DNA from: Nemertoderma westbladi
Lineage: Eukaryota > Animalia > Xenacoelomorpha
NCBI GenBank assembly: GCA_032718475.1
Contig: JAUCBJ010008095.1
Coordinates: 19,421-83,420 of the forward strand
DNA length: 64,000 nucleotides
Direction of reading: 5' to 3'
The notes beneath the pieces were generated by a model. It ran no database searches, had not been told where the DNA came from, and worked only from the letters and a program-made list of their open reading frames with translations. Made by a program: the position numbers and the translations under genes. Positions 4,821 to 58,636 of the stretch are shown one piece after another (position 1 is the stretch's first letter; each line of letters opens with the position of its first letter).

Positions 4821-5690
4821 AATATTCTAATTTTGTAGTTTGTAGGTCTAATACTTACGAATGATAAGGCTCCTTCCCCTTTTGTGTATTTCCAGGACTC
4901 AAATTCAGGCATAAGGTTAATACTACACCCAGAATTCGGCAATTTTAATTTACCAGGTCCCTAATACTAAGAAGAAATGTGTTAGTTTACTACAGTAAGC
5001 GTACAGTTGCAAATAGCTAGCCTGGTTCTTATCTAGAATTTTGGTTACCTAGGTGGGCTTGGTAACTTCTTATCAGGATGTCGGCAGGGACACGGTAGGT
5101 GTTAGTATCCCTAATAGCCTTAATTTATGTGCGCCTAGCAATAAACTGCCCGACGGTATAACCTTAATTCAGGCAAAACACAGTAACCCTCTCCTGGCCT
5201 ACAAACTCCAACGCAAACGATGAACACTGTTGTACTACTGATAAACCACCAGCGCACCTATACCTGGCAAATGAGTTAGGCGTACAGTTTTGCTGTACCC
5301 TACCAATGTACATGCCTTGGAATAGTGTACCTGTGTCTTATCTGAGTACTGGTATCTCTCTCTGCCTATCTCTCCTCTCCTCTCCCATAGGAATATGAAG
5401 GGTTTCCGCGGGTTTTTCCTGAATCAAAACAATACAGTTCCTAAATTTAAAATTTTGGCGCACAGCGTGTCACTACTTCTACCTTCGATCTCAGGTCTTA
5501 TACTTAGGTAGCAAGGCATCGAACGCTGTCTAAACTTTCAGGCGATGGGCGAAGAACTATGAATCGGTATTGTGGGTGGTCTCCTGTCTACATTTCGCCG
5601 ATGTTCCCGCTTATTGCTGCGGCCCGCTGTCTAGCCTGCCATCTGTCTCTTAGTTGGGTTCACAGTGGTGAAACATGTAAAAAGGGCAGA

Positions 5691-6244
5691 TGTAGCAATA
5701 ATTCTGACTTTATTACAGATAACCAACAAATTATACTAATACAAACAATTTATAAGTAATAAAGGTCTGCAACTGTGTAATCTATATAGGAACTAATGAA
5801 CAAAACCGCACCTTTTATAGCAAATTTGTGCCGCTAACAATCGAGATAAATCTAGATTGTTCTATGAGTTCCATTAGGTTTTTAAATATAATCATTGGTC
5901 CAGCAAACATATAACTTGCACAACATTGGTTACTGTCAAATAACTACAATCGCATTGGTTAATCTATCTTGAGCAGATGCAATTAAATCGTAGCGGTCAA
6001 TTCAAATGAGTTGAAATTTAGCACAAAAATAATTCGAACCTGCTAGGATTTGAACTCGATACCTACTAAACGATTTTCTAACGCATAACCGACTGAGCTA
6101 CTGAACCACTTGAACAATATTGTATAAATAGCTATATTAAATGCAAATGAGGACTTAATGTAATCTTTATAACACTAATGCAAGTTAATTCCAACAAAAT
6201 AAAATTTTGAAAATCCACGGCTTTTATGAGGATATAATTCTATA
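5691..6244 (-). repeat. Putative 3' LTR of element C (~554 bp)
   Basis: It follows the PPT-like TTTTCATGGAGCGG (compare B TTTTCTGGGAGCGG). It starts TATAG, probably a TG>TA change, contains CTATAAAAG and AATAAA, and ends GCTACA. No second copy is present to confirm it. Confidence 0.6.
6035..6107 (-). pseudogene. tRNA-derived cassette (Pol III A and B boxes), not a functional tRNA
   Basis: GGTTCAG-TAGCTCAGTCGG (A box) ... GAGTTCAAATCC (B box) over 73 nt. Acceptor and T stems pair poorly. Confidence 0.6.
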
Positions 6245-6399
6245 CCGCTCCATGAAAACAGGATATTATGGTACATAAAATATACGGTTTTCACCAATCA
6301 AATTATGGAATACTTGGGGCATACCTACATATTTACAAATTAAATTTCAAACAATAATACTTCCTTTCTACGTAATAATTTGGTACAAAATAATTACAA

Positions 6400-6880
6400 A
6401 TTCAAACTTTACATATTTAAGGCTTTATTAAGTAGGTACAATATAAATCTAAATTAAATTCACCAATATAAATCTATTGCATCTCAAATATTGCATAAAT
6501 TCAAAATAATCACAAATACTAATACTGCTTCTTATATAAAATATAGATTGCATAAGTTCGGAATAATTACAAATATGAAATCACAAGAAAGGCTCGCAAG
6601 TCTTCTGTCTACTCTCTTGCAAATACAAATACTGCTTCTATATAAAATATAAATTGCATAAATTCAAACAATTACGAATACAAATACTTTCGTACCTAAA
6701 TATAAATTGCATAAGTTTGGAATAATCACAAATATAAAATATAAATCTTTCAAAATATAAATTCCTTCTAAATATAAATCTTACTAAATATAAATTCCTT
6801 CTAAATATAAATCTTACTAAATATAAAATATATGAATCAAATAAATCACAAGAAAGGCTCACGAGTCTTCCGTCCACCCT
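6400..6880. repeat. AT-rich degenerate tandem repeats in the 3' UTR of element C
   Basis: Recurring AAATATAAAT(T/C) units, and a 33-bp duplication at ~6752-6830. Confidence 0.6.
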
Positions 6881-7653
6881 TTGCCTTACATTTTATTGCC
6901 TTTCAGAACGGGCCCTGCCGCGTCCTCGAAAACTACGTATAGGCGATTTATTTAGCTTGTGATACGGGACTTATGGGGCGAGTCACTAGTTTACCTTGGA
7001 CATTGGGAGATGGTGCGACCATTTCTTCACAAGCTCGTATTTTCGTAAACCCAAATCCTCGTCCGACTCCTCGTGACCGATTGGTTGTATCCACCGTTGG
7101 CAAAACATCTGGGAACGCGCGGGAAGCGGACGACGCAGACCCAAGAGAAACTTGCGCCCCCTTTTGATCAGCTGGTATGTGTCCCAGTCCTCCTTGCGGT
7201 TCTCTGGGAAGTGACACCGTATCCCGAGTAACTCGAATAGTCGGTTCAAATCCCTTTCGTTCTTCAATATTTATAGTTTTCTTTAGTTGTTGGCTCCTTT
7301 TGAACCCTTATGATCCTGTTCTGTCCGTCCTCCCGAGGGTGACGTGCAGACGGCGCAACCGGAGTAGCTGGTATGTTGGTCGCCTCTAGGATCTCCTCTT
7401 CCTCGAATACGCTTGCTCGTATGCGTTTGTGGTAGAATGCGGCTCAGTACGCCCATGCGACGGTTAACCAAGCTCCCTTGTTTCGCTTTTCTGTTCGGAA
7501 ACGATCAAATTCACCATATGTGATACGATTGACGACTTTCTGGAAGTTCCATGTATTCTTATTATCGGAATGAATCTGTAGCAAATATTCGCGCACAACT
7601 CTAAATCCACTATCATGAGGTAAAATATCAACTACCTCGATTAGTTCGTCATA

Positions 7654-10092
7654 TTGTGGAATAGTGTTAACCGAAATTCTGTCCATCTTCAGGATTTTAT
7701 CTCTGGAAATGGATTGTTTTCGGCTGGAACCCAGTTCAAGAAGCGAACTGGAAAGCTATGGACTCATAGTGGACCCAGTGGTCACAAGTCCCAGATAGAC
7801 CATATTCTGTTTCGTAGGAAATACAGGAGCTCTATACAAGACTGTAATGCATTTACACTTCGACCCTTCTCCAGTGATCACCGCCTTATTGTGGCCAAGG
7901 TAAGACTTAGTCTGCGTGCTAGCAGAACAACGAAATCTGCCTTGCCACGGCATGACTGGTCCTCTCTGTTGCAACAGCCAAGTGTGAGATCCAGCTTCAC
8001 ACTACAGCTGAGCAACAGGTATGAGGCTCTTGCCTCTGAGGCGGCAGATCACTGTGAGGGCTATACTGCCTTTACAGAAGCAGTTAAGTTAGCAGCTGCA
8101 GAAACAGTTCCTGTATACCCTCGAAACAGGAAAAGGGCCCCCTGGACTGACAACAAAATTCAGAAGTGCCGAAATGACCTTCATAAGGCGCAGAAAGAGT
8201 CCCGACTCAAACAGACTACAGCGGCCAAGAATGCAGTTAAAGCTGCATCTAGGTCCCTGAACAGGCAGTACTCTGTTAATCTACAGGAGCTAATAAACCA
8301 ACAGGTTGATGCCATCAATGATGCTGACGACAGCAGGCAATCATCCCAGGCATGGAAATCGATCAATCTGCTTACTGGGCGGAAAAGCCAACCAACCACC
8401 AAGGTTAAGGCTGAATCACCAGCCGATCGCCTCAATGGTTGGAAAGCCCACTTTGAAAAGCTCCTCAATAATGACAGGGTATTGCCTGATAACTTTATAG
8501 AAGTAAAAGTGTCTGAGTCTGTACTCCCAGATATTCCCATTGGCGATATCTCCTTTGCAGAAGTGAAGGCTGCTGCAAAGAGCATTAAGACCAATCGTGC
8601 CAGTGGAGTAGATGGTGTTCCCCCTGAGGTCTTTAAAATACCTGAGTGTTTAAAGCTCATCTATCCCATCATAGTAGACATGTACCGTACAACAAGAGTC
8701 CCACAAGAAATGAAAACAAATAAGTTGGTGCCAGTTCCCAAGAAGGGCAACCTAACACTCTATGGTTCTTTTCGGGGAATCTCATTGATCTCGATTGCTG
8801 CAAAACTATACAATAGAATTCTATTAAATCGCATCAGGGATCCCATTGAGAGACTGCTACGTGGAAATCAGAATGGGTTCCGTAAAGGTCGTGGGACCAT
8901 GGAGCCCATTTTGGCACTTAGAAGGATAATTGAAGAGTTATCAAAAAAGAAAGACAGGCATCTGGCTGTTATCTTTGTTGACTTCTTCAAGGCCTTTGAT
9001 TCAGTCTCTCGCTCACGTATGTTCAGCATACTTTCATTGTATGGGATTCCTGATGAAATTATTGCAGCAATCAGATCAGTATACGATGGTTCGACAACAT
9101 TTGTGTCTACTGTTGACGGTGACACAGAACCATTTGAAGTGTTATGGGGCGTCCTCCAAGGAGACACACTTGCACCATTCTTGTTCATTATTGTGGTTGA
9201 CTATGTTCTACGCATGTCCTTAGATCATCATAATGATGATGGGGTGATGATAACTCCACCTACTGGCTCCAGAAGTCGAGGAAATCCTGCCAAGTACCTA
9301 ACTGATCTAGACTTTGCTGATGACTTAGGAGTACTCTCAGAATCATTAGAGGGAGCCCAGCGGCTCCTCAGCTCATTAGAACATGCTGCTTCTAGTGTTG
9401 GTCTTTTTATTAACTCCAGAAAGACCAAAATTCTGACAGTTAACTTTGAAAGTCCTCAGCAAGTCTCTGATCGGATGAGCATAAGCTCAAAGGATGGTAT
9501 GCTTGAGCATGTGGACGACTTCTGTTACCTGGGATCATGGATCCGGAAGTCAGGTGAGGACCTTCGAATACGTAAGGGAAAGGCATGGGCAGCCTTGAAT
9601 AGGCTTTCCAGGATTTGGAAGTCACCTAGAATTAATCGGAAACTTAAGGTCCGATTATTTAGAGCAGCAGTAGTTCCAGTACTCCTCTACGGGAGTCCAT
9701 GCTGGGCTCTAACTGCTGAGGACACCAAATCTCTGGATGGCACATTCACAAGAATGCTACGCCGGGTACATTGTGTCAAGTACAATGCACACATCTCCAA
9801 CCAGACACTATATAACATTGGAGGTGTCTCATTGGTTCCCCCAAGCTTGACACTAGAACAAAATCGCCTCCGCTTTGCAGGACATTGCTTTCGCCGTGAG
9901 GACCAGCCAGTGCACAATCTTGTACTTTGGCAGCCTCATGGAGTGAATAAGCATGGTGGACAGCCCATGACTTTCTTGAGACGCATCTTAAAGGACACTG
10001 GCCTTAAAGATGCGGATGATCTAGCAAATGTCATGGGTGATAGGGAGTTGTGGCGGTGCAATTTTGTTGACAAGCCGGCACAGCATTCTTAA
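7654..10092 (+). CDS. RTE endonuclease (partial)/reverse transcriptase, open for ~810 codons, N-terminally truncated
   Basis: ORF track and the motifs above. The first codons come from flanking DNA. Confidence 0.85.
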   Translation: MWNSVNRNSVHLQDFISGNGLFSAGTQFKKRTGKLWTHSGPSGHKSQIDHILFRRKYRSSIQDCNAFTLRPFSSDHRLIVAKVRLSLRASRTTKSALPRHDWSSLLQQPSVRSSFTLQLSNRYEALASEAADHCEGYTAFTEAVKLAAAETVPVYPRNRKRAPWTDNKIQKCRNDLHKAQKESRLKQTTAAKNAVKAASRSLNRQYSVNLQELINQQVDAINDADDSRQSSQAWKSINLLTGRKSQPTTKVKAESPADRLNGWKAHFEKLLNNDRVLPDNFIEVKVSESVLPDIPIGDISFAEVKAAAKSIKTNRASGVDGVPPEVFKIPECLKLIYPIIVDMYRTTRVPQEMKTNKLVPVPKKGNLTLYGSFRGISLISIAAKLYNRILLNRIRDPIERLLRGNQNGFRKGRGTMEPILALRRIIEELSKKKDRHLAVIFVDFFKAFDSVSRSRMFSILSLYGIPDEIIAAIRSVYDGSTTFVSTVDGDTEPFEVLWGVLQGDTLAPFLFIIVVDYVLRMSLDHHNDDGVMITPPTGSRSRGNPAKYLTDLDFADDLGVLSESLEGAQRLLSSLEHAASSVGLFINSRKTKILTVNFESPQQVSDRMSISSKDGMLEHVDDFCYLGSWIRKSGEDLRIRKGKAWAALNRLSRIWKSPRINRKLKVRLFRAAVVPVLLYGSPCWALTAEDTKSLDGTFTRMLRRVHCVKYNAHISNQTLYNIGGVSLVPPSLTLEQNRLRFAGHCFRREDQPVHNLVLWQPHGVNKHGGQPMTFLRRILKDTGLKDADDLANVMGDRELWRCNFVDKPAQHS

Positions 10093-10128
10093 AAATGCAG
10101 CTGCAATGCAGCATGCCGATCCTAGTAG
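7660..10128 (+). mobile_element. RTE-clade non-LTR retrotransposon, 5'-truncated, with short 3' UTR and TAG tail; 100-bp target site duplication (7560-7659 = 10129-10228)
   Basis: APE C-terminal motifs (SQIDHIL, SDHRL), RT motifs (QNGFR, DFFKAFDSV, GVLQGDTLAP, FADD), no C-terminal CCHC, and identical flanking direct repeats. Confidence 0.93.
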
Positions 10129-13100
10129 TATTATCGGAATGAATCTGTAGCAAATATTCGCGCACAACTCTAAATCCACTATCATGAGGTAAAATATCAA
10201 CTACCTCGATTAGTTCGTCATATTGTGGCATAGCGGAGATATATCCTTCCGACATCATAGTTTGAGGGTTTACCGCCCAAAATCCAAGATGTGCTCTCAT
10301 TGGGAATCATCTTCTTTGCGCCGATACATGTTCGTCAGCTAAATCTTCCCAATCATCAAACAGTTTTCTCACTAGTTTTACAGATTCGTGTTTGTATGGT
10401 ATGTCTCGCAGTTGACATTCAGATGCTCGATGTCCCTTTATATTGCAATATGAGCATTGAGCCATAAATCTCCAGCAAGTATAAAACGTATGGGACCCTT
10501 GATCTCCACACCATCCACAAATCAGTTGAGTCGTAGTAATGTGTTTTCCACTGCATTTCGTCGAATGATGTCCAGCGACGCCACATTTACCACACATCGT
10601 ATTGGCAGGGTACCACACTCGCTCATATATAAGATCTCCAATTGGTCGAGCGCTTCCTCCCACACTATAGTCATAATCGTCTGGATCGATAGGTTGGTAT
10701 GTTTCAGAAGGTTGTATGCAAACTACAGCATCTGTTGCTTCAAGTTGACGAATCTCCGTCTGAGATTTCTTCGGGAAGTTCCTTTCAATCTCAAGAAGTT
10801 CTTCTAGAGGATCATCGATGATCGTCGTTACGTCGGAATCATCACCTAAGTGACCGATAGGCACGCGCGTGATTCGTCTATAACCTCCACGATACGTTCT
10901 CCTTCATAAGGTAACATTGTAAACATAGATGGTCTTTCGATAAGAGATCCCGCACAGCGAAGATACACGTCTCGAAATATACTAAATCCTGCTCGAGTAA
11001 AGGCATTGCACTGAGCGTCGGAATTGTAGAAGGGTTCGAGGAACTGTCTAAACACGTCGGTATGAATTCTCCCTTCCGCGTAGAACGTATGATCTTCTCT
11101 GAGACAAAGTGGATGTTGTTTAAGAGTCCGAGACACAATGTCGGCGATCAAGCAAACATTCACTGATGACTCTATCGCTAAATAATATTGTAGTACTGCT
11201 CTTGGAGGTGAAGTAATAGCCCAATGCACGCATCCTCTCCATTTGAGCTGTGATTCAAACTCGTTTATATCTGGAGTATCACCTTCTCCATACGTTTTAA
11301 TATACTTTGTTCTTTTACTTTCCTTGTAATCCCAATTAAACATCAGGTAGGAAATGTATCCAGTTCCGGTCTTCTGAGTATCATACTCCCGGAAAAGTCC
11401 TTGTTCTATAGACCACAGTATAAGAGGTCGAGTGTCGACGTAAGGTGTCGGTAATTGGTTGTCACTGTCCGACATGCCGGCAAAGTCGCTAATTAAATCC
11501 TCTCTAACTCCTGATCCAATCTTTACAACGGTTTTATCTAAAATAATATTTCTTACCATCTTCGGTAACATCCTAGCATCGATGTTGCAGGCTTGGTCCA
11601 TCTTCTTTACTATGTTAGTGAGGAGATGGTGCCGCTTAGTATTTCCTGGAGGTATCGGCATTTGCTTGTCGCTCCTTTGTCTACTGAAAACGTGCAAGAC
11701 TCCGTCTGCCGCTCTAATTTGTAAAGTCTTGGAAGTCAGACTCTGTTGATGGCTGCCGCCCTCGTTGTCATAAAACATGTAACCATTTTCCTGGAATGAT
11801 CTAATCGTCCTGTTCCATTTGTCCATTAATTCTTCCGAAGGTTGCCAAATCTTCTCTATGTCCTTCTCGTCCTCGAAACGAATGATTTTACCTTGCCAGT
11901 TCGTGGCGATGTCTGTATCCGATTCAAAGGTTCCTGTTCCGATCCACAAACGAATTGTTCTGGTCAGATATCCACTTTAGTTACTCGGAGCTATATCAGC
12001 GCCAGCTCTATCCAGTTCCCTAAAGTCTTGAATATGAGGCGGAACATTATGCACGACCTTTTGCGTAATATGTCTACGTAAATCATATATCTTAACCATA
12101 TCGCTTAGAACAACTGCAGGAAGAAACTCTAAGTTTGAAATGATTTCCGGATGATCCACAATAGGTATTTCGTACGTCGTATCTTCTCGGACTGGTATAC
12201 TAATAGGGAAATTGAGTGTCGTACTCAATGGTTTTGTAGTCGAAGTACTATGCGGTTGCATTTCTCTTGTCCTTTTCGGTGATGCAATTTGTAGTCTCTA
12301 AATAACGTTTTGAGCAAAGTTTATACTTTCGAAAATTTCCGGTGTCACATCCTTAGCTGAAGTTTGATCGTGTGACGTCCAATGGTAAGGTAGGCTCGCG
12401 AGTCTTCCGCCCCATTCTTCCATCTCACCTTCCTCGAAAGCCTTATAGGCTCTGTATAGGCTAAGAGCTTCTTTCTTTTCGCGGGTTGACTGAGTCACCT
12501 CTTCCAGCGTAAGTTCAAATGCATCGGGTTCAACAATCTTAGGTGGACAAACGACAATTTCTCCCGCCTTTGGTCCACACATAGCAAATGAATGATACGG
12601 ATTCGATAAAGGATACTCCTTCCTGGTAACGTAGTTGTTGATGGTTCGAACACCTTGCCAATATCGGTTCGGGATTTTCCTTATTCAAATGCATCGGAAT
12701 CGCCTTTTGTTGTTTGCGCATACAGGCACCACATTGATAATAAAGTTTATAAACTGAAAAGGCTTCCTTCGTTTCTCTATTGTCTCCTCGAGTTCGTCTG
12801 TAAAGATGCATTCCATCAAATTCATCGCGTACCGCAGGCATAGGTTCATGTGCCTTCAGGTATTGCATGGTATGATACAAACGACTAATTTCGGTATCGG
12901 GGTCTTCACTGATATCTCCCGTATCACATAACGCATCGTACAGATAAAGTTCATTGAAGGTTTTTCGCAAACTTTCGATTCTTTCGTTTAGAGCGTTCTG
13001 CCTCCTCTTTAATACCGTCGAGTCGTATTTAGTTTTAGCAAGTTTTGCTGTACTTTCTGATAAATCCTTTATTCCGAATATAGTGTAATCCTTTGCACCG

Positions 13101-13817
13101 AATCTTTCAAATGGAGCTGCCGCTTCCTCTTGAATATCGTATCCTCATCTCGGCTCTCCAGATATCCCCTTTGCCATTATTAGAAGTATGGTTACATAAT
13201 CATTACTACTAGAGGGAATACAACAGAGTTTATGTTAGTTGTGAGGAGCTTTGAGAGTTTTCGTCTGCCCTTTTGGCTCGACAATGCTCTAACCTCCTAC
13301 CCATAGCCTAAGATCTAGGGTTTCTTTAATGACACACTGTTTCTTATCTAAAATTTTGCCGAAATAAAAACGATTTGGGCTAAACTGGCTGTGAGTCTAA
13401 AATACTCACCTTTTGATCCCAAACTATTATCAGAAAATAAGCAATCAAGAATTAGTAATAAATATAGGGAAGACTTATTGAAACACGACCGTGTAAAATT
13501 TAATATTAAAAAAGAAAGGCTCGTGAGTCTTCCGTTCTCTTGTTTCTCTAATTTTAAGTTCCACCCGACTGTACCCTGAAATCCATTCACTGGAGAAAAT
13601 TTTAAAATTTTTCAAATCCAAATGGATTGTCTAAAATTTCGAAAATGTCTCATATTGTGAGTTCCAAGTAGAATTCCATTTCTTATACCTACAAATCCCG
13701 CTCCTATGTGACACATAAGGGTACTACCCTCAATGTTCACATATAAAGACAATGGAAATCTACCGCAGTCTTTACTACAGTGTACAGGTACGCGGAAATC
13801 TATTTGTAAACTCCTTA

Positions 13818-16800
13818 TTATTTACTAACATTAGTTGGAGACTTGTAATCTCCAGACTCGTTACGAGTCTCTTCAAGAAGTACTAGACGTTGAGTCGGTC
13901 TGTCTACTGTACGACCGTCAATTGTCCGTACCGTCACGGTTCTTATCACTCCATCCATAGATGGATGTGTGTCTAAAATAACACCTGTTATCCAGAAGCG
14001 TCTTTTTAAATTCACTTCTGCCAACAGCACGTGATCTCCCGGCTTTAAAGCACGGGTATTGTTGTACCAAGTAGTTCTGGCAGAAATAGAGGGCAAATAA
14101 TGGTTTTGCCATATTTCCCAGAATTTGTTAGCCAGTTGTTGCGTGATTTTCCACGCTTTTCTACCATAGCTATCGCCTTCTATTGGAATAGAAATAGGCA
14201 TCAATGAAGTCGGTGCCTGCATTAGCAGGTGTGCAGGTGTTAAAGCAAACTGGGATTGTTTGTCATCGGGTACTAATACTATTGGTCTAGTATTTAGTAT
14301 TGCCTCGATTTCAACAAACAATGTGGTCAGTTGGTTGTCTGTCAAGATGTGGTGTACTGGAATGACTTTTGCCATGGCTGTTTTAATAGATCGTATCAGT
14401 CTCTCCCAGACCCCGCCTCTCCATGGACTATCTGGAGGATTAAACTTCCAAACAATCTTGTAAGGACGTAGTTCGTTTGAGATTTGATCATGATCTAATT
14501 TCTTAAAGGCTCTAGCAATTTCATTTCGAGCACCAACAAAGTTTGTACCTTGGTCTGAGTACAAGCATTTTACTAGTCCGCGTCTAGCGATAAATCACCG
14601 CAATGCTAGTATAAAAGCGTTGGTGGAAAGATCCATCACACGTTCAATATGAACTGCCCTACTGGACATGCATGTGAAAATCAGTCCCCAGCGTTTTACT
14701 AGTATACATCCACGTTTCGTATGTATGGGACTAAAGCAGTCAATTCCAGTCTCTGTGAAAGGTGGTCTGAATGCTTGTAGTCGTGCTTGTGGAAGTTCAC
14801 TCATTTCTTGGGTACTTATTCTAGAATGTACCTTTTTACAAATAATACACATGCGCATCACCGAACTTAGTGCTTTACTGGGTCTAATTAATACAAATCT
14901 TGTACGTAAGTAGGAAAGACAGTGGTGTCTTCAAGCGTGTTTCAGATGTAAATGTGCGTCCAGTATCATTGCACGTTGTAATTCGTGATGTTGCGGTATT
15001 ATTATTGGTTACCTAAAATCAGTATTAAAGTCAATGTTTTGAAGCCGAGATTTATGACAAATTAGGCCATTATAAATTATTGGACTCCAACTCAATATTG
15101 GTGACGACTTGATTGGTTGACCTTGACTTATGGATGTGAATTCGCGTGCGAAATATCGCAATTGGTAATGGCGAATTAATTTAATTTCACATCTGTCAAT
15201 CTCAGTCAATGTAAGTCGACGTGTAAAGTTGCATTTGCCTTTAACGTATTGTACAAAACGTACAATCCACGCTAATTTTCGGCACGCATTTGTCCAAGAA
15301 TCTGTCAGGTTTACAATACGGTCGACGTAAGTATTTATGACGTCATCAGGTAAGTCAATGGTGAATTTTGAAGGTTTTGTTTTACTAGATGGGCCCACGG
15401 GTCCGCCGGTAGGTATTCCCTTGTTGACTGTTGATCCGTCCGGGTCTATGAGTAATTTGTCCTTCTTCGCCTTCTTACCTTGATTGTCAGTACTTTGTGA
15501 GTCGATCCCTAATGGAGGTTTTAACTCTATGGGATCACTGGGTTTCGGTAAACTTATTTTTCTGCCGATATTTATCCCAGGTCTCACCGTAGGTTGTAAG
15601 GTTGGTATGTCTCTTGAGCGCAAAGTAACACCTGTATTTACATTTGTATAGGTACTACCCACATCTGTAATACATGAGGTTTCACTGTACTTATGGTTAC
15701 TCAAGAGTGTCAAATTTGGTAGTTTGTCGATAGAAGGCCGCTCCAAAAGGGAAACTGCGGCTTTACTATGTGTCAGTATGTTACTAATGTCTGGTTGAAC
15801 ATCTTGTGATATGTCTGGTAAAATGTTTCGCGGAACGTCCGGCGAAACGTCTAGTGACATGTCTGGCAAAATGTCTGGTTGACCGTCTAGTAACGTGTCT
15901 GGTTGACCGTCTGGCGATACATCTGGTGAAGAAAGGCTCGCAAGTCTTCCATTCTTAACTTTGTAAGTTATATTTTTCTTTTTCGCCTTTGGTTTCTTCT
16001 TAAGTTTCGCCGTCGTTTTTTTCTTTGCTTTCCCTTTCTTTGGTTTTTTAATTTCGGCGTCCTTAGGGATAGTGTTAGACTTGTTATCGTACAGTGGCGG
16101 CCAATGTTGTGCTGCTCTTTGTACGAATTGTGGTCCCTGTTGCCAAAATTCCTTGTTCTCCGGTTTACAAAACTCCTCAGGCATCATTCCTCGCGACGCA
16201 ATATCAGCTGGGTTTTGTGGTCCGGGACAATGTCGCCAATCTTCTTTTATTGAATGGTCTAAAATTTCTGCACGACGGTTAGCTACAAATGTCTTAAATT
16301 CAAGTGTGTCGTTGTTTATATAAAATAAAACTAACGTCGCGTCAGTCCAATAAAATATCTGTAAGCTTGATTGTAATTCCGTCTGTATAAGGTTCACAAT
16401 GGTGGTTGACAAGGTTGCTGCTTGTAGTTCAGCGCGTGGTGTCGTCATATACTTAGTAGGCATGGTCTTAGCCTTAGAAGTAATGAGCGATACATCAAAC
16501 TCGTCTGAATCTACTTGCCTACGCAGATACGCTGTCACTCCAAAGCCGTTGTCACTGGCGTCAGAAAAACAATGTAATTCTAAGTCGTCAGGAAATGTCG
16601 TCTGTAATGGAAAGTACACCCGGGGTATGGAATAATCTTCTAGTGAAGACAATTGCGCCTCCCAAGTTTTCCATAAGTCCACTTGTTCGGATGAGATCGG
16701 TTCGTCCCATGTCAGTCCATCTTTCCAGATACTGCGCATGTATATTCTTGCTTGCAGTATTATTGGGCTGATAAAACCTAATGGATCGAACAATCGACTC

Positions 16801-16908
16801 AGCTTTGACAAGCAAGACCTCTTTGTCAGAGAATCTCCTTGAGCGTCCAGTCTTACTTTCACTCGAAAGTTGTCTGTGTTTGGGTCCCAAAATAGTCCCA
16901 ACACCTTG
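13818..16908 (-). pseudogene. pol 3' part of element C (RT connection, RNase H, low-complexity spacer, integrase) with a frameshift near 15010 and stops near 14932 and 14596
   Basis: ORFs 15009-16908, 14595-14861 and 13818-14564 are colinear with B pol. Confidence 0.9.
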
Positions 16909-18104
16909 TGTAAAAGCTTTTGTGGGATAACTGGTTCGTTTGCCTTGCTGGCCAGTTCCCCCCGGTCGCTAGAATACTCTAAAAGGGATCTATAGCTAAA
17001 ATAGTGCAAGCTACCAGCTTATTGGCTGATTTGCTGTACGAAGGTATCTGGGCTCCGTTTAATCGGCCAACCAGCCTAGGAAAGTTGCGTCATAGCCCTG
17101 TTTCTGTATCTGCCAATAGAATTTGAGTTGGCGTTGATTTTGACCTATCCCAGAGCTACTGAACTGAATTTCCTATCTGTATGCTCATCCTCTGTGTTGG
17201 ACGGGAGCTTCGTGGAATAAGGGTAGTTGGTATCCTCGTATAGGGTAGTAGTCATATGATTCTGTTGTTGTGTTCCCATTTTTTCGCCATAACACCGGCT
17301 TTTGGAACAACTCTAGCAAAAACTGCTTAGATTATAGAAAAGTATAACTGTTACCGGCGGTGTTACCTCACTTGATTTAACGGCACGGCACGGACTTTAA
17401 TTACTAATCATATTGTTTGTACTGCTATTTACCGTCAGTTATTAATTGTATCGATTTGTTGATGAAATATTGTCATTTGGAGAATATTGATAAATCACCC
17501 AAATTTCCCAATTTTCTTGATACACTACAGGTTAGAGAGACAGGCTATATATAACAATTGCGATTTATATCAATGTGGTGTGTATTGAATCTAATGTTAT
17601 TTAGTAGACACTACCTGAGTCAATTGCTGTTCTCTTTATGTGTGATCAAATATACTGACGGTCGGCAGAATAGTGTGCATGATTGTGAGTGTGACTGGTA
17701 ACAAAGCATTTCCTAAAGAATGCGCCTTATACTTTAATCATAAGCCTTATCGTTGCGTTTAGTATAAGTCCTAGCTCTGTTTAAATAGATAGAGCGCCAC
17801 ATCCTAAAGGAACTGTTAATATTTCCCGAAAGTTAATAATATCTGTCAGGAATTACATATTAGCGATCAATCGAATAATACAGTAGGCTTACACTGCAAC
17901 CTTACACTGCAATAATAAAATCTAAGCATCCGAATTCAGCCTCCCGGGTGTATCCATCGGGTGAATGATCGCGCATGGGCTGGCTTCGGCTAATGTTTGT
18001 TTATTAGCATAAAATATTGTCGTATGCTAAAGGTGTGTTAATTAACTAAAAGACATATAAATTTTGGCAGGTTAAACTGCTAAAGGTCTTCAAAAGCGCG
18101 AACA
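16909..18104 (+). repeat. 5' LTR of element B (1196 bp)
   Basis: About 99% identical to 36977-38174 (I counted ~7 substitutions and 2 single-base indels by eye). Confidence 0.95.
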
Positions 18105-18116
18105 GTAACAGTTATA
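18105..18116 (+). promoter_or_regulatory. Non-tRNA primer binding site of B (GTAACAGTTATA), complementary to LTR 17343-17354
   Basis: Exact 12-nt reverse complement, directly abutting the LTR end, with no TGG start. An equivalent covarying pair exists in A (1576-1586 / 2326-2336). Confidence 0.75.
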
Positions 18117-28457: not shown

Positions 28458-29161
28458 TACGTCTGGAGTGGGTGTATGTCTATATTATTTTATTTATTTT
28501 ATTACATTTTATATGTAAATATTATTATGTACGTTATTATAATCGTTTTATTTAATTTTATTTAGTAGAATGTTATTTAGATTATTTAGTAGATTAGTGC
28601 AATATATTAGTGTGTATTACGTAATTACATAATATATCTAGTGTGACGGCGAGAAATAATTATTTTCTCTTTCCTTACTGTCCGTATTATATTATAAATG
28701 CGAGACTATAGTAAGATGACATGTCAGTACTTATTAAAGTACAATAAAGCCACTACTATATTTAAGTATTATTGGTAGGCAGAGTATTAGGAATGCAAAG
28801 TTCAGATCCTCGTGTCTCGGCTAAACCAAGCTCTGGGTAGACCTTGGAAACGACTTGCCTCTTCACACTGACATTGCTTCGTGCGATATTGCTCTTCTAC
28901 CTTATAACAAATAATACATATAGTAGCGTGATATCCCTCTAACAGTAGCGTAAATCGCAAATAAATCTGTTAAACTTTTTGACCATCTGTAATTCTAGTC
29001 GATTAAGATATCGTGGCACCCACCGATATACTTGAAAGACAAATTCTAGAATCAGTGGTTAACGTCCCCAGACAAGTTCTGGAATAAATCGGTGCCCATC
29101 TTAAATATTAATTTAATATTTATTAAAATCTGTAAAATTCCGATCCTTTAAAATTTCTAGT

Positions 29162-32100
29162 TGATGTGATTTCATATATTCAATATTTACATGTACTTAT
29201 ATCTTATATCTAGTTAGGTCGTCCCTGATATTGTAACTGTCAATCATATACAATACCGGTACTCCAGTATTGTACTTGTGTCGTACTTCAGTACTTGTCA
29301 TATCTGCATGTCAATACATTCTGCTTGTGTCTTTCTTATCATACTACAGTGTTGTATAATCCAGCCTAATATATAGAACCTGCATACCTAAACTGCATTT
29401 CATATATCATAACATGGCGCTAGTGTGTATTTCTGGATTACTGTAGTCAGTTAACCAGCAAACATTCAATTTTGTAATTGCTGAATTAACACTACAAATG
29501 CTGAAATGGCTGAATATAACACGCCACCAAGCCAGCGTATTCAGTTGACACTCGACTCTGCAGATATAAACGGGTTAGTTACTGGCCAATCCCCTCCGTT
29601 TTTCGGCTTTAGTGAAGCCACTACACCTTCGCACGATGCCATTGGATTTGGCCCATTGGTTGACCTCAATGGTCCCCCCACGACACCGGTACCTGTACCT
29701 AGACCGGATTATAAACCGGCCCCCATCAACATTGCTGGATTAGTGCAAGGTTTCGCTGACGTTTTGGCTACGCAGCAAAACCAACTCGAGGATCAACGTC
29801 GGAAGGATGAAACATTCCGCCGAACCGAGGAATTACGATTACGCAGGGAAGATTTTGCGTATTTCGAACAGGCTAGGCAGCGGGACAACGAACGACTGCA
29901 AGAGTTCCTGTCAACCGCACTGCGTCAACCGCGGGGTGACGCTCCAAGCGATCCAGATCCTGGTATACATCGACGAAACCTCACTCATCAACCATCCCGA
30001 TCATCCAACAACAACTTGGCCCGTTCTTCACTGGCCAAAGTCCCACCCCCCCTTTCTAACGAAGCCTCGATGGCGGATTTTGCACGGTGGCGCCGTTTAT
30101 GGGATGGATTCGTCGTTATACAACGACTAGATCAAGTTGAACGCGAAGAACAAAAGGCCGCCCTCAACCAGGCACTGAGCCCAGAGCTTCAGGACCTGTT
30201 ACATCACGGTTTAAATATTTCGAGTTCAGGTGACGATGTTGATGTAGATGACATTCTATCTGCAATTGAATCTTACCTTCGCCAAAAACGCAATATCGCA
30301 TTGGACCGAATTGCCTTTGATGAGCGCAAACAGACTGCTGGAGAATCCTTCGACAGCTTTTATGTTGACCTACAGCGTTTGGGGAAAGATGCTGATTTAT
30401 GCTCTCATTGCTTCGATGATCGATTGGTCGATCGCATCATAACAGGTGGCGGCGACCCTGAAATCCGTCGGCGGTTATTGGCTAAACGCCCCCGCCCCTC
30501 ACTACAGGATACTGTAGATTTCTGTCGCGCTGAGGAAGCAGCTCAACGCAATGAATCGAGCCTTTCCACATCAAAGATTCTTAATATTTCCGCCAAATCA
30601 TCACATAAGGGTCAACAGCGAAGTTTCTCCCAATACCGGCCCCAACATAGATCCAAATCAAGGGATAAAGTCAAAGACAGGACGCCGGTACCTCAGTCCC
30701 AACCATGCCCATATTGCGGAAAACAGAAGCACAAACAAGGTCAGTATTGCCCAGCTAGCAATTCAACATGTAGATTTTGTAAAGTAAAGGGCCACTGGGA
30801 CACAGTGTGTTTCAAGAAAAAAGGAACACATAAATCGAAAATGAATTCAAATCACAGTATTTCTAATGTCGAATCCGATGAAAAGTTACAAACTGGCACT
30901 ATAAAACTCTCTATTAGTTCTGTGGACCTTACAAATAATAAAAATACCCCAATGGTATTTGTCCACCTCCAGACAAGCAATCGTATGACCTCTGTCGGAT
31001 TCTATGCCACTCCAGACACTGGTGCTGCAGTGACACTGTTTCCCCAAACCAATCTGAAGGATTTGTCTTTATCTGAATCTGAGTTACAGTCTACATCTGT
31101 AAAATTATCTAATGCAGATGGTGGGGATATCGACTGTATTGGAACATTTTTATGTAAAATAACCCTTGGTAACCGCCACTCAACAGTGCGGGCTTATGTT
31201 TGTAATTCAGCCAAACATATTCTCCTGGACTGGACTGTTTGTCAAGAACTAGGAATTATCTCAGCAGACTTTCCCTCTCAGGAGTCAACCTTGTATGTCT
31301 CTCATATCCCAGAACTTAATTCATTGAAAGGTTTACCTAACACTCCCACAGATTCCGAGACTAATGCAATCAAAGAATCCATTATGAAAGAATATTCCGA
31401 TGTTTTTTCCACTGAGGGAGCCTTGAAACCAATGAATGGGGAGCCTATGCAGATTCATCTCAAAGATGATGCACAACCTTTCGCCATTTCGACTGCCCGA
31501 CCTGTTAGTCTGGCCATCAGAGATCGAGTCAAAGCAGAGATTAATCGCATGGTCGAACAAGGTATCATTGCTCCAATTGGAGATGTTGTCACACAGTGGT
31601 GTCACCCACTTGTTGCTGTTATACACCAAAGTGGTAAACTAAGAATATGTACTGACTTCACTAAGTTAAATAAATACTGCATCCGACCTTATCATCCAAT
31701 GGTCACACCAAAGGCTGCCATAGATGGTATCTCTTCTGGAGATAAATATTTTTCCACGGTTGATGCAGTTAAAGGTTATTGGCAGATAGAGTTAGCTGAA
31801 GAATGCCAGCATCTCACTACCTTCATATGCTCAGAAGGCAGATTCAAATATCTACGAGCCCCCATGGGACTCTCATCCACGGGTGATGAATATAACCACC
31901 GTGGTGACTTGGCGTTTTCTGGATTGTCCAATTATGAAAAAGTAGTGGATGACATCCTCATCCACACAACAGACTTCCATGAACATGTCAACTCAGTCCT
32001 TCAAGTTCTGCAGCGTTGTCGGCAGAATGGAATTACCTTAAATCCGACCAAATTTCAATTTGCCAGGTCTGAAGTTAAGTTTGTAGGCTACAAAGTTGGT

Positions 32101-34528
32101 CGTGACGGAATTAAAGCCGATCCAAGTAAACTCTCTGCTATTCGTGAATTTCCTGAACCACATGGTATCCGCGATCTCAGATCCTTCTTCGGTATCGTAA
32201 ATCAATTGGGGATGTTTTCACGAGACATAAGTGCTGCAGCTGAACCCCTTCGCCCTCTTTTAAAGAAGTCTAACCAATTTTCATGGAATTCCAATCATGC
32301 AGAAGCATTTACAAAGGTCAAGGAGGCCCTGTGCACTCCAGCTGTGCTCCAGCCATTTGACCCCAACCTTCCAACTGTCCTGCAAACTGACGCCTCCCGA
32401 ACCAAGGGACTTGGGTTTGCTCTCTTACAGAGACACTGTAATGGATTGCATCTCGTTCAGTGTGGATCTAGATTCATTTCAGATACGGAATCGCGATATG
32501 CGATGGTTGAATTGGAAATGTTGGCCATCGTGTATGCCGTACAGAAATGTCGGTTATACCTACTGGGAATAAACTTCAATTTACTCACAGATCACAAACC
32601 ATTGATACCAATATTGAACGATAAATCATTATCATCAATTGACAACCCACGATTGCTTAGAATGAAGGAGAAACTTATACCTTACACATTTGTTACCGAA
32701 TGGCAGAGTGGAGCTAACCATCATATTCCTGATGCATTATCTCGCGCCCCTGTTCAAGGGCCCAGTGAGGAAGACAAATTAGCTGAAGATGAACTACAAC
32801 ATCTTATCTGTGCTCATATATTCGCAATAGGGCAACAGATTGATGAGGATGAAGACCCACCAGGAATGACCTCACTCACGGATCCAATATTAACTAAACT
32901 CCGCAATTCAGCTGCCAGTGATTCAGACTATTGCGAGCTGGTACAATCTATAGAACGCGGTTTCCCTGAAAAGAAAGATGCACCAGCATACCTCCTTCCT
33001 TATTACAGCTTAACTGACAATCTATCAACAGATAACGGTCTAGCCCTCTTTGATTCCCGAATTATTATTCCAAAATGTCAAAGAAAGGAAGTATTAAGAC
33101 GCCTGCATGCATCTCATCAGGGTACTGAGCGTACCAAACGGCGTGCTCGGCTTACAGTATATTGGCCCGGTCTGTCCGCAGACATCATTAATGTAGTTGG
33201 CATGTGTCAACCATGCCAAGAACGGCGGGCATCCTTACCAGCCGAGCCGCTTCTTAGGGACCCACCCCCTTCTCGACCTTTTGAACAAACCGCTGCCGAT
33301 ATAGGTCACCATGGTGGGAAAGCATATCTCATATATGTAGACCGTTATTCAGGTTGGCCAGAGGTAGCAGAATTTTTGCATGAACCGGACTCCGCTAAAG
33401 TTGTTAATGTTTTAAAGCGTTTTTTTACTGCCACAGGCATTCCTGTTAAATTTAGGTCAGATGGAGGACCCCAATTTACATCATCAACATTCAAAGCCTT
33501 TGCCAGCAATTGGGAATTTGACCATGTGCAATCCATGCCTCATTTCCCATCCAGCAATGGTCTGGCCGAATCAGCTGTAAAATCCATGAAACACCTGATT
33601 GCCACCACAGGTGGTGACATTCATAGTGATAACTTCCGTCTTGGATTACTAGAATTTCGCAATACTCCGCGTACTTCCGGATACTCACCAGCACAATTAA
33701 TTTTCGGCCGCCCTTTACGTTCCATTGTGCCTTGTCATATATCAGCCTTTGCCTCTAAATGGCTTGATGACACTCATGAATCACAGTCCGAATCTACAAA
33801 CACCGCTACAAAGAACGAATTACGCCGACCTTTGACACCCTTAACCATTGGCCAAAGTGTATGGTTTCAAAATCATTCTACAAAACGATGGTCACAACAT
33901 GGTACAGTAATAGAAAGACAAGGAAGAAACTACCTTGTGAAACTGTTGTCTGGTAGATCACTGTGGCGCAACCGCCGTCATATACGCGCCCGTATCGATC
34001 CTACCAATCAAGATTCTGGAGGGAAGGTGCCCAATGATGATTCTCGTACACTGAATCCTCCGTCCACCCCGCGAGTTAAATTTCATGACAACCTCACCGA
34101 GCATGAATATGACAGTAACTCGCCACCTACTCGCCAAAGTTCCCGATTAAGGAAAGCTCCAAACTATTTCGGATTTAATTAACAGCTTTACGATTCTAAA
34201 CCGAAAGTAAATAACTGGAACAATGAACTGAAGGTAATTAACTGAAAAGAATCATTTCATCTCGATAGGGGAGTTGATGTGATTTCATATATTCAATATT
34301 TACATGTACTTATATCTTATATCTAGTTAGGTCGTCCCTGATATTGTAACTGTCAATCATATACAATACCGGTACTCCAGTATTGTACTTGTGTCGTACT
34401 TCAGTACTTGTCATATCTGCATGTCAATACATTCTGCTTGTGTCTTTCTTATCATACTACAGTGTTGTATAATCCAGCCTAATATATAGAACCTGCATAC
34501 CTAAACTGCATTTTCATATATCATAACA
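29162..34528 (+). mobile_element. Intact Ty3/Gypsy (Mag-like) LTR retrotransposon nested in B; LTRs 29162-29414 and 34275-34528; TSD CTAGT
   Basis: The LTRs differ by one T. PBS TGGCGC at 29415, PPT AGGGGAG before the 3' LTR, and CTAGT at 29157-29161 and 34529-34533. Confidence 0.97.
29506..34182 (+). CDS. Gypsy Gag-Pol polyprotein, 1558 aa, uninterrupted
   Basis: Two zinc knuckles, protease DTGA, RT (DAVKGYWQ, PMGL, VVDD), RNase H (TDAS, ELE, TDHKPL), integrase (HHCC, D-D-E, SNGLAE). Confidence 0.96.
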   Translation: MAEYNTPPSQRIQLTLDSADINGLVTGQSPPFFGFSEATTPSHDAIGFGPLVDLNGPPTTPVPVPRPDYKPAPINIAGLVQGFADVLATQQNQLEDQRRKDETFRRTEELRLRREDFAYFEQARQRDNERLQEFLSTALRQPRGDAPSDPDPGIHRRNLTHQPSRSSNNNLARSSLAKVPPPLSNEASMADFARWRRLWDGFVVIQRLDQVEREEQKAALNQALSPELQDLLHHGLNISSSGDDVDVDDILSAIESYLRQKRNIALDRIAFDERKQTAGESFDSFYVDLQRLGKDADLCSHCFDDRLVDRIITGGGDPEIRRRLLAKRPRPSLQDTVDFCRAEEAAQRNESSLSTSKILNISAKSSHKGQQRSFSQYRPQHRSKSRDKVKDRTPVPQSQPCPYCGKQKHKQGQYCPASNSTCRFCKVKGHWDTVCFKKKGTHKSKMNSNHSISNVESDEKLQTGTIKLSISSVDLTNNKNTPMVFVHLQTSNRMTSVGFYATPDTGAAVTLFPQTNLKDLSLSESELQSTSVKLSNADGGDIDCIGTFLCKITLGNRHSTVRAYVCNSAKHILLDWTVCQELGIISADFPSQESTLYVSHIPELNSLKGLPNTPTDSETNAIKESIMKEYSDVFSTEGALKPMNGEPMQIHLKDDAQPFAISTARPVSLAIRDRVKAEINRMVEQGIIAPIGDVVTQWCHPLVAVIHQSGKLRICTDFTKLNKYCIRPYHPMVTPKAAIDGISSGDKYFSTVDAVKGYWQIELAEECQHLTTFICSEGRFKYLRAPMGLSSTGDEYNHRGDLAFSGLSNYEKVVDDILIHTTDFHEHVNSVLQVLQRCRQNGITLNPTKFQFARSEVKFVGYKVGRDGIKADPSKLSAIREFPEPHGIRDLRSFFGIVNQLGMFSRDISAAAEPLRPLLKKSNQFSWNSNHAEAFTKVKEALCTPAVLQPFDPNLPTVLQTDASRTKGLGFALLQRHCNGLHLVQCGSRFISDTESRYAMVELEMLAIVYAVQKCRLYLLGINFNLLTDHKPLIPILNDKSLSSIDNPRLLRMKEKLIPYTFVTEWQSGANHHIPDALSRAPVQGPSEEDKLAEDELQHLICAHIFAIGQQIDEDEDPPGMTSLTDPILTKLRNSAASDSDYCELVQSIERGFPEKKDAPAYLLPYYSLTDNLSTDNGLALFDSRIIIPKCQRKEVLRRLHASHQGTERTKRRARLTVYWPGLSADIINVVGMCQPCQERRASLPAEPLLRDPPPSRPFEQTAADIGHHGGKAYLIYVDRYSGWPEVAEFLHEPDSAKVVNVLKRFFTATGIPVKFRSDGGPQFTSSTFKAFASNWEFDHVQSMPHFPSSNGLAESAVKSMKHLIATTGGDIHSDNFRLGLLEFRNTPRTSGYSPAQLIFGRPLRSIVPCHISAFASKWLDDTHESQSESTNTATKNELRRPLTPLTIGQSVWFQNHSTKRWSQHGTVIERQGRNYLVKLLSGRSLWRNRRHIRARIDPTNQDSGGKVPNDDSRTLNPPSTPRVKFHDNLTEHEYDSNSPPTRQSSRLRKAPNYFGFN

Positions 34529-35437
34529 CTAGTCAATTAAAATATCGCAGTATTTACCGATATTCTTAAAAGGACGATTTTATAGAATTAAGGATCCTGA
34601 GTTCCCAGACATGCTCTGGAATAAAATTTGTGTCAATTTAACATCAAATAATAAAATTCACGGGAATAAATTTAAATTCATATTCAAATGAATTTCATAA
34701 ATTGTCATTTTTTGCAATTTATAACATTCCCAAAATTCTAGTAATTAATAGATCATGGGAGCGGAGATTCATATTGAGTGTATTAAAGTGCGAGAATCTC
34801 CAACATATAGTCAATAGCCGATAAAATTTATAAAATCATGCATAAAGAGGATATTGACAACTAAAGAATTACTATTAAATAACATCCCAGATCTGTATGC
34901 ATGAGAATTACCCTAATTCTACCGCTAGTTTTCCATAATGTCACCATGGCAACACCCACGCTAGAATTAGAAGCAAGTTAAAGGAACAATAAAAGGCTTG
35001 CCCCATTGCGTAGCCTAAGAGGATACATAGCGCACTATTAGTATCCAAGGATACATAGTAATAACGTGACATTCTGGAAGACACTGACTAACGGACAAAT
35101 GGCCTGCATGTGTGCAGTAAGTAATGATTGTATGGAATTTGTGCGTTTATAGGTGAATGTTACTACTAAAGTGTGTTTACAGTAGCTAATCGCAATTGTA
35201 AAGTAGCCCTAACTCTACCGAGATAACCTCAAGTGGATTCAAGCCTTTGGGATGGACAGTGGTGGGACTTGTGCCGGTTATCGTTGTCGTGCTGTTGCTA
35301 CATGTTGGCGTAAACACCGCGACAACGGTACATCGGCGCTGAGAAACCCACTGTCCGGGGGCAAAGACTAGTAGGCAGCGACGCCCACTTGCCTAAATAT
35401 TGACTCATACTAATATTAATAAACTCAGATAGCAGAT

Positions 35438-36898
35438 ATGACGGAATTAATAGAAGATGATCTTGGTATCAGGGAACGATATACTCTACCTTTACAAGCA
35501 TTTGTGGATAGCTTGATACGCGGTGAAGCCGATCCAACCATTACGGAGGACGATGGTCGTTATATCGAACCGCCGATGTCCCAAGAGCAACTTACGCGTG
35601 AATTGGACTATCGAAAATTAACCGCTCGCTATACGCATCGTAATGGTACGTATATGGACTTCCTAACTACTGGCCATCCTATCGATTTACATGATACGGA
35701 CGATGTATACACCGAAAGGGAAATGGTTCTATTTAAATATCATACCCAGCGGAGTCGTAACGATAAACCGAGAATAGATCACGAAAATTATATTCGTAAC
35801 AGACTGGGAAGACGAACCAATATGCCTAGAATCTGAGGAGATTCAGCCTATCGCGCCCGGAACAACGACAACGATTACCTCCTAGAATGGTATCAAGGTC
35901 CACAGTGTCTCACTGCGTACGATTATCGCCATGCCAACTATGTTTCTCGGCAACGTTGTCGGTTATGCGCATCGAGAGACCATGTTACGCCCATGGACAC
36001 AAACGTCCGCTGTTCCTATTTCCACGAACAACCGACGATGGAAATTTATTGCGCGTATTACAGACTCAATAACTTGCACATTTTTGCGGTTTGCCCTCAA
36101 TTTATGACTCAATGTCACCATTGTCAACTAAAGGGACGCGCCAGTTTCGATTGCCCTTTTTAGTCACGATTTGGAAAGCGTAGATGAAATGATCACACTA
36201 CGTTACATCAGAGCTTGGGAAGCGAACGCTGATTTACATTGTGATTCGCGCCATCGTTATTATCCTGGACGCGCTTATGAAGGAGTTTATGCGTTCCATC
36301 CTTATTCCATCCTTATCTATTCGCTTCTGTCGAACAGAAATCACGCATATCGAGTTACGAACTACTGAAGCGCGTCGGAGAATGTATTTCAACCAAGTTC
36401 GTACGCAAATTTCTCAGGAGGGTTAATCCTAGCAACCTTCATTCCTATAACTTAATCAGTTATATCCGTCAGGACCCGGACTATGGAGACTTATTTGTTA
36501 ACTCATACCCCGAGTTACAGGAAGTATATCGACGGCCTTACGAATACCGAGCCCGCGAACGCGAGTTGGAAAGAACCATTAAACCCAGGAAGTTTCTAAC
36601 TGCCTATGGTCCACCTACGGCTCTCGTTCAGACCACTCGTAAAGGACCCGTAAGAGCGGCTGTCCTAAAACGCGCTCTAAAGGCCGCTAGACCCCTCTCC
36701 CCCGACGTTGATGTCAATCAACTCGGCACTTCGACTGGCGGATACACCGACCATAATCCTATACCCTCTGATGCAATCATATTGCACCCTTCACCCAGGA
36801 GTTATAGCCCTCCTTGTAAAGTGGCTCGCCCCAAAGAGAAAAAGACTCTGGCTAGCTTTAAAAAACTGCGTAAACGCCGTCCGCGTAAGAAAGATTAA
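35438..36898 (+). pseudogene. Disrupted accessory ORF of element B (triple zinc-knuckle region homologous to that of C)
   Basis: Reading through TGA at 35834 gives CRLCASRDH...C, YCAYYRLNNLHIFAVCPQFMTQCHHCQLKGRASFDC, then after a shift WEANADLH...R..P.RA..G. This matches C (ICGWC...HTFYTCWRFMAQCSYCNIKGHRASEC...WEDLADEH...R*FPMRAHLG). Confidence 0.7.
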
Positions 36899-44044: not shown

Positions 44045-44118
44045 TATAGATTACAATTGTTCCAGTCATTGATTATTATAATATAAACCAGAAACCTACA
44101 CTAAATTATATATATACA

Positions 44119-58471: not shown

Positions 58472-58636
58472 ACCGGTACTAATTTAATAAATATTGGTTA
58501 TACTAAAATGAATACACAAAAAGTAACAAATTTAGCCTAATGAAGAAACTGCAACCCAGTATAGAGTATACCAGTATCAGTATACGGACCAATAAATACG
58601 AAATAGGCCTATACCAAAAACTGCTGCTGATTGCGT

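Follow-up and report, generated by a model that had tools for sequence, protein, structure and literature searches.

Third genes encoding DEDDy-type nuclease domains (with a DEED motif) have been described in the rotifer retrotransposons Juno1/2 and Vesta2/5 and in Terminons, with their activity unproven (Rodriguez et al. 2017, PMC5408684), and reviews restate this description (PMC5718144, PMC6431247, PMC6338049). BEL/Pao elements are metazoan retrotransposons whose third genes are described as env-like, and the International Committee on Taxonomy of Viruses (ICTV) profile of the Belpaoviridae mentions no nuclease gene (PMC8742986). The literature searched (subscription journals, Repbase annotations and supplements lay outside its scope) contained no case of a nuclease gene in a BEL/Pao element; the word "exonuclease" has 0 occurrences in the available part of the BEL/Pao paper PMC3118150, and the available parts of PMC11662393 and PMC13524379 contain no such gene. 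Here, we describe a third gene, ORF3 (open reading frame 3), carried by a BEL/Pao element (element C) in 64 kb of DNA from Nemertoderma westbladi (contig JAUCBJ010008095.1; the whole stretch is called the window). The middle domain of ORF3 is very probably a highly divergent WRN/EXD2-type DEDDy exonuclease fold, judging from its motifs and profile matches, and it is followed by three CCHC zinc knuckles. An initial annotation of the window had pointed to precedents in both rotifers and nematodes; the rotifer precedent stands, but none was found for nematodes in the literature searched, and "nematod" has 0 occurrences in the available text of PMC5408684.

By its domain content, element C is a BEL/Pao (Belpaoviridae) element that lies on the minus strand and is truncated at its 5′ end. 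The Pao-type pol order of reverse transcriptase (RT), RNase H, and integrase fits what remains, since Pfam recognized Peptidase_A17 and then integrase with DUF5641 upstream of ORF3, bearing out the BEL/Pao host and env-position accessory gene of the initial annotation, and pol identity to the complete BEL element of the window (element B) was 41-43%. A Pao RNase H/Peptidase_A17 region, an integrase-DUF5641 pair, and a third gene in the env position are likewise found in the Belpaoviridae (Semotivirus; PMC8742986). Like the ORF3 of rotifer Juno/Vesta elements (PMC5408684, as far as its available text goes), ORF3 of element C is a non-env gene that follows pol, has no membrane segment, and encodes a predicted divergent DEDDy domain with one candidate Asp-to-Glu change. 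Unlike the rotifer genes, it sits in a BEL/Pao host, is 1,100 to 1,200 codons long, and begins with a 400-codon N-terminal part of no known family. Three CCHC knuckles follow the nuclease in element C, whereas in rotifers a Cys-His-Cys motif is reported for Vesta2/5 only, and the candidate Glu occupies the fourth acidic position (DEDE, an uncertain assignment) rather than the third, as in the rotifer DEED proteins (PMC5408684, available text). Element C does not have the rotifer DEED motif, its third acid being Asp (D160), in a comparison made by description only. The identity of ORF3 as an env glycoprotein was rejected: the highest 19-residue hydropathy was 1.39, and no RX(K/R)R furin site occurred in any ORF3 piece.

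The arrangement of a DEDD exonuclease with a series of CCHC fingers behind it also occurs in TbRND, an RNase D of Trypanosoma brucei in which the C-terminal fingers raise RNA binding and cleavage (PMC7797062, available text; PDB 7c42/7c45). TbRND is an enzyme of the cell's mitochondria and has four fingers behind a linker of 28 residues, whereas ORF3 is carried by a mobile element and has three knuckles behind a linker of about 175 residues; the two nucleases showed no similarity at E<=10, and the knuckles matched at E=2.7. The two architectures are probably convergent.

The motifs listed in the initial annotation (YDNEG, LQI, ExoII, YVDT, and W...YYLAIE), together with the three knuckles, were all present as it described. 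Numbered from 11976, the first position of an open frame of 376 amino acids (11976-10846, the nuclease frame), the ExoI candidate YDNEG places D70 at 11769-11767 and E72 at 11763-11761; the LQI motif is followed by the ExoII candidate LPKMVRNIILDKTVVKIGSGVRED, with D160 at 11499-11497, and then by YVDT, and the ExoIII candidate consists of W252 and YYLAIE with Y265 and E269 (11172-11170). The order of these motifs, the KxGxGVRED form of ExoII, and a segment N-terminal to ExoI are shared with the WRN/EXD2/MUT-7-Nibbler family (PF01612); unlike members of that family, the element C domain falls below Pfam detection. In the ESM Atlas, 24 of 30 matches lay in clusters of PF01612 that bear the name Werner-like exonuclease (score 0.91), all 10 of the best named matches shared a family or clan, and the cluster listed carried the family on 38% of its members, with 163 shared features. 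A hidden Markov model (HMM) was built from 120 bacterial EXD2/WRN-like homologues of a standalone bacterial PF01612 protein, the closest solved relatives of which are WRN and EXD2, and this model ranked the nuclease frame first among the 204 ORFs of the window (E=0.02), at 7.7 bits versus 7.3 for the best of 2,000 shuffled sequences, a narrow margin. When eight motif blocks were scored in order, the nuclease frame reached 98.3, whereas 300 shuffled sequences scored 54.7 +/- 8.0 (z=5.5) and the highest-scoring of 27 real-protein decoys reached 81.2. Unguided MAFFT alignment matched D70, E72, and D160 to columns that are invariant in the EXD2-like family, every method used aligned D160, and NCBIfam gave a weak DnaQ epsilon match over ExoI (E=0.14). 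Together, these results sustain the WRN/EXD2-type assignment of the initial annotation.

Several observations weigh against this assignment. ORF3 did not match PF01612 in Pfam at E<=10, a PHROG search was blank, a search of PDB sequences returned two chance matches and no homologue, and there were 0 matches at E<=0.001 among 1.84 billion representative proteins and 0 homologues among 1,419 candidates from a library of longer proteins. Searches of plasmids and phages with ORF3 gave one chance match each, and viral and metagenome contigs held no ORF3 homologue. The shared Atlas features (158-168) were below the 170 typical of same-family matches, hhalign gave a probability of 19% over 25 columns, and global identity to bacterial EXD2-like members was 14-22%, the element C domain having insertions at three places (behind ExoI, behind the LQ hairpin, and ahead of ExoIII). 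For the RNase H-like fold itself, which the initial annotation had predicted, the language-model features of the ESM Atlas agree and the profile ranking above 2,000 shuffles is favorable, whereas Pfam and PDB searches were blank and the unguided AlphaFold model matched no fold (predicted local distance difference test [pLDDT] 32.6). An alignment-guided model (pLDDT 54, residues 48-108 unresolved) matched EXD2/WRN, but this match is circular and uninformative because the model was built on the alignment of that family. Within the domain, a second ExoI candidate, RFEDEK, outscored YDNEG in the block test, and ExoIII could be aligned in two registers. The Asp-to-Glu change that the initial annotation saw in ExoIII holds in the register of the block test (Y265-x3-E269), but the MAFFT register, about 13 residues earlier, has no acid at this place (Asp to Ser), and Asp occurs in neither. 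We lean toward catalytic activity, with the candidate Glu in ExoIII, while recognizing that this prediction is considerably less secure than that of the fold.

The window copy of ORF3 is decayed, with stops at 13147-13145, 12300-12298, 11979-11977, 10309-10307, and 7446-7444 and frameshifts between 12464 and 12745 (near 12560-12680) and at about 10868, so that its nuclease frame and its knuckle frame (10903-10307) differ. Other genomic copies were examined via contigs from four DNA runs, which came from three studies and no more than three samples. All 30 bins of positions 5000-17100 were covered by contigs in three of the runs and 29 of 30 in the fourth, and on the 1,191-bp nuclease stretch, the runs yielded 616, 266, 519, and 18 contigs with 82-100% identity. 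Since hundreds of diverged contigs fell on this stretch, element C belongs to a multicopy family. The stop at 11979-11977, just before the nuclease, differed in other copies (four of four runs), and contig comparison showed that the stop at 7446-7444 was absent from them. Contigs over the first frameshift (X1 record 7, X4 record 28) differed in length from the window copy by amounts that matched the frame offsets, and at the frameshift between nuclease and knuckles, contigs in all four runs had loose ends at 10868-10870, again with lengths that matched the offset. Moreover, a single contig (11234-13118) joined the N-terminal part of ORF3 to the nuclease. Of the seven stops and frameshifts, four were open to checking, and all of these, including the break between nuclease and knuckles, were private to the window copy; the stops at 13147, 12300, and 10309 were not among the difference rows listed, which counts against a full restoration. 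ORF3 is, therefore, one gene in the element C family, its breaks being private to the window copy where testable. The initial annotation, which had posited one long decayed ORF and a nuclease-knuckle fusion, proved right on both points, since contigs of other copies restored the frames at the breaks that could be checked rather than leaving separate fragments, and it is through these copies only, not in the window copy, that the fusion is visible. We hold the fold and its fusion to the three knuckles, taken together, with high confidence. As a separate observation, contigs of three of the four runs joined 7530 to 12304, pointing weakly (sides of 27-30 letters) to a derivative without nuclease and knuckles.

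Selection was judged by counts of codon positions, not by dN/dS proper, from 37 of the 40 near-fixed differences listed (of 125 in total), three beside the breaks being dropped. The 37 differences fell on codon positions 1, 2, and 3 in the proportions 12/4/21, an excess at the third position (P = 0.003), and those of the core region did so in the proportions 7/2/18 (P = 0.0004). This indicated that the nuclease domain is under purifying selection in the element C family. None of the 40 listed differences hit the codons for D70, E72, D160, Y265, or E269; this comparison covers 40 of 125 differences, the remaining 85 being outside the listed rows, and its reach is limited to that extent.

The first and third knuckles have the canonical spacing CX2CX4HX4C, and the second (CX2CX5HX4C) is one residue over; the stretch that holds them (10612-10394) is unbroken in the window copy. 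Matches to zf-CCHC (E=0.003; score 18.2, below the Pfam cutoff of 20.8) and to nucleocapsid were weak, and a profile of the knuckle pair found 0 homologues among 48 candidates from the longer proteins. The decayed ORF3 of element B, about 500 codons in length, also carries knuckles, and the two arrays are homologous (pairwise E=1e-7), which indicates that the knuckle gene predates the split of the two families. Apart from the knuckles, ORF3 of element B showed no exonuclease signal and no other likeness to ORF3 of element C. Because element B keeps knuckles without a nuclease, the nuclease is not core: with two elements compared, it is an optional addition to a knuckle gene, gained by the line of element C or lost by that of element B. 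An origin of the ORF3 knuckles by duplication of BEL gag knuckles was not favored, the spacing being different from that of the element B gag.

Element B also bears on how these families may prime reverse transcription. The 12 nucleotides (nt) directly after its 5′ long terminal repeat (LTR), at 18105-18116, are complementary to a site within its own LTR (17343-17354; 0.0002 expected). In self-priming of the Tf1 type, complementarity between primer-binding site (PBS) and LTR replaces a tRNA site, and the 12-nt match resembles this signature rather than a tRNA site; the partner site starts with TATAAC, however, and could be promoter DNA instead. The related element A differs at the positions equivalent to 18105-18116, and its partner site is outside the window.

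ORF3 of element C opens with an ATG at 13177, in the env position after a 640-nt spacer that follows integrase, and extends over about 1,100-1,200 codons. The initial annotation had confined the gene to 10129..13177, which is too short, since ORF3 is interrupted there by a long interspersed nuclear element (LINE) and continues past it, from 7559, to at least 7264. The frame picks up correctly on the far side, and a 105-bp duplication (7560-7664 = 10129-10233) flanks the LINE, which we take to be a member of the RTE clade; RTE LINEs are known for long target duplications. A basic, proline-rich open frame at 7307-6948 may be the true end of ORF3. Neither a Pfam match nor a usable ESM Atlas match was obtained for the N-terminal part. 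A predicted branch point, pyrimidine tract, and AG precede the ATG, and ORF3 is therefore likely made from a spliced message; only two sites of this kind, this one included, occur on the 11.9 kb of element C sense strand. The ATG of element B ORF3 (35438) is likewise preceded by a branch-like CTAAT and a CAG (35405-35440), there with no clear pyrimidine tract.

Considering these features, we propose that ORF3 of element C would yield, from spliced RNA, a soluble 3′-to-5′ exoribonuclease of the WRN/EXD2 type, with the three knuckles holding single-stranded RNA and guiding the 3′ end of that RNA into the active site. We infer such knuckle-assisted trimming by analogy with TbRND; the most likely outcome would be that host small RNAs, or RNAs with tails, are trimmed and silencing of element C is thereby weakened, host small RNAs being the presumed substrate. 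We favor an accessory role in a conflict with the host over a core step of replication because the sister family has no nuclease and ORF3 is not part of pol. MUT-7 and Nibbler, host relatives of the domain, act on small RNAs (PMC11347159, available text). Against this proposal, Rodriguez et al. saw no clear gain in copy number from DEDDy ORF3s (PMC5408684, available text). As a whole, the mechanism of knuckle-assisted RNA trimming against host silencing is a tentative one that falls somewhat short of an even chance, and its fuller form, in which a BEL/Pao lineage made a TbRND-like RNA trimmer by joining a WRN/EXD2-type nuclease that it had captured to a preexisting accessory gene with three knuckles, and the product suppresses silencing by degrading or mistrimming host piRNAs or small interfering RNAs (siRNAs), is doubtful.

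An active nuclease might instead work on the nucleic acids of the element itself, trimming the 3′ end of genomic RNA or of a primer or, in the manner of proofreading, mispaired cDNA ends in the particle. The nucleocapsid-like knuckles could seat the protein on genomic RNA, WRN and EXD2 structures contain DNA or RNA nucleotides according to their PDB titles, 3′-end processing was proposed by Rodriguez et al. for the rotifer proteins (PMC5408684, available text), and the 12-nt PBS of element B pairs with its own LTR. The self-priming-like signature, however, sits in element B, and its presence in an element without the nuclease argues against a need for the nuclease in that step and does not support the link to self-priming drawn in the initial annotation; the PBS of element C is outside the window, and ORF3, being separate from pol, has no evident route into particles. 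We consider this explanation unlikely.

Another possibility is that the nuclease is weak or dead and that ORF3 is an RNA-binding regulator, an export or packaging factor comparable to Rev or CERV, possibly acting on a repeated 20-nt motif. This motif (GGAAGACTYRCGAGCCTTTC, <=2 mismatches) occurs in five copies versus 0.01 expected, is restricted to the sense strand of element C, and has two of its copies inside coding sequence. ExoIII shows Asp to Glu in one register and Asp to Ser in that of MAFFT, the knuckle module is the part that element B has in common, the CERV protein of Cer1 is an export factor that is spliced and rich in cysteine (PMC10309623, available text), and two DEDD proteins, EXD1 and Maelstrom, lack activity (PMC5408684, available text). 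On the other hand, D70, E72, and D160 lie on invariant columns, and an Asp/Glu swap is also found in the possibly active rotifer ORF3s (DEED; PMC5408684, available text). The core of the motif is a CpG-rich palindrome, with variants that resemble CpG decay, and would suit a DNA-binding site equally well; an RNA hairpin is not supported (no compensatory change, -2.9 kcal/mol). This reading, too, we regard as rather improbable. Finally, that ORF3 is an orphan accessory protein with no DEDDy nuclease and a chance or convergent likeness to ExoII is very unlikely: ExoII alone contributes 43.9 of the 98.3 in the block test, an Atlas score of 0.9 was reached by 4 to 10 of 100 shuffled proteins, and Pfam, PDB, the 1.84 billion proteins, and hhalign yielded no solid match, but three separate methods agree on the superfamily, the motifs stand in the correct order, and a "W/F-x-G-x-I" segment and a helix lie upstream of ExoI, as in WRN.

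Mobile elements are nested within one another in the window (Table 1). Element C pol ends at 16907, cut off where the 5′ LTR of element B begins (about 16908); the two LTRs of element B (16909-18104 and 36977-38175) are 1.2 kb each and 99% identical. No target-site duplication was found around element B, and element C does not resume past it, so that the junction without a target-site duplication is probably the product of recombination or deletion. The gag, protease, RT core, PBS, and 5′ LTR of element C are absent from the window. Its pol linker between RNase H and integrase is long and contains a run rich in lysine as well as coding repeats of 12 nt (15786-15930). Within the inferred 3′ LTR, a tRNA-like or SINE-like (short interspersed nuclear element) stretch was seen by eye at 6030-6110 on the minus strand, and neither ARAGORN nor Rfam gave a match in or near element C. 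Also in the window are a young Gypsy element (29159-34528), inserted between the pol and the ORF3 of element B and carrying an intact 1,565-codon frame, a decayed THAP-domain element (39523-39969), a 792-codon frame with an Ig domain (44050-46428), a LisH-WD40 gene in a single frame (56930-58483), and a gene for an MFS transporter (61760-63424).

Table 1. Positions, in the window, of element C features and of ORF3 of element B
Feature	Position	Strand	Support or remark
Remnant of element C pol with Pao RNase H region (Peptidase_A17) followed by a long linker	15009..16907	-	Pfam E=7e-43
Decayed integrase of element C, with in-frame stops and a DUF5641 tail	13818..14930	-	DUF5641 E=8e-23, translation
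Putative splice acceptor for ORF3	13209..13238	-	Sequence prediction; branch-like ACTAAC, pyrimidine tract, AG at 13210-13209
N-terminal part of ORF3 (about 400 codons)	11977..13177	-	Stops and frameshift
ORF3 WRN/EXD2-like DEDDy exonuclease domain (predicted)	11122..11904	-	Unbroken in window copy
ORF3 linker, about 175 codons	10595..11121	-	Frameshift at about 10868
ORF3, three CCHC zinc knuckles	10415..10594 (10594-10553, 10519-10475, 10456-10415)	-	
ORF3 stretch from knuckles to LINE insertion	10129..10414	-	Stop 10309-10307
5′-truncated LINE inserted in ORF3	7665..10128	+	RVT_1 E=1e-28, DUF6451
ORF3 C-terminal part	6948..7559	-	Same frame to 7264
Element C 3′ untranslated region, AT-rich, short repeats	6245..6947	-	Ends in GGAGCGG tract resembling element B polypurine tract
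Element C 3′ LTR, inferred limits	From about 6244 to 5000-5400	-	Family contig cover falls in 5000-5403 bin
20-nt motif, five copies	15931-15950, 13514-13533, 12389-12408, 6852-6871, 6587-6606	-	Pattern search
Element B decayed ORF3, about 500 codons	35438..36900	+	Knuckles about 35970-36154

These results extend nuclease-bearing third genes from the rotifer Juno/Vesta elements to BEL/Pao, the described third genes of which are envelopes. Nuclease-bearing third genes as such were already known, and what is new in element C is the host superfamily and the nuclease-knuckle architecture. The element offers an unbroken nuclease domain under purifying selection, with element B as a natural nuclease-free comparator. 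If the substrate is indeed host small RNA, ORF3 would represent an enzymatic counterdefense by an animal transposon.

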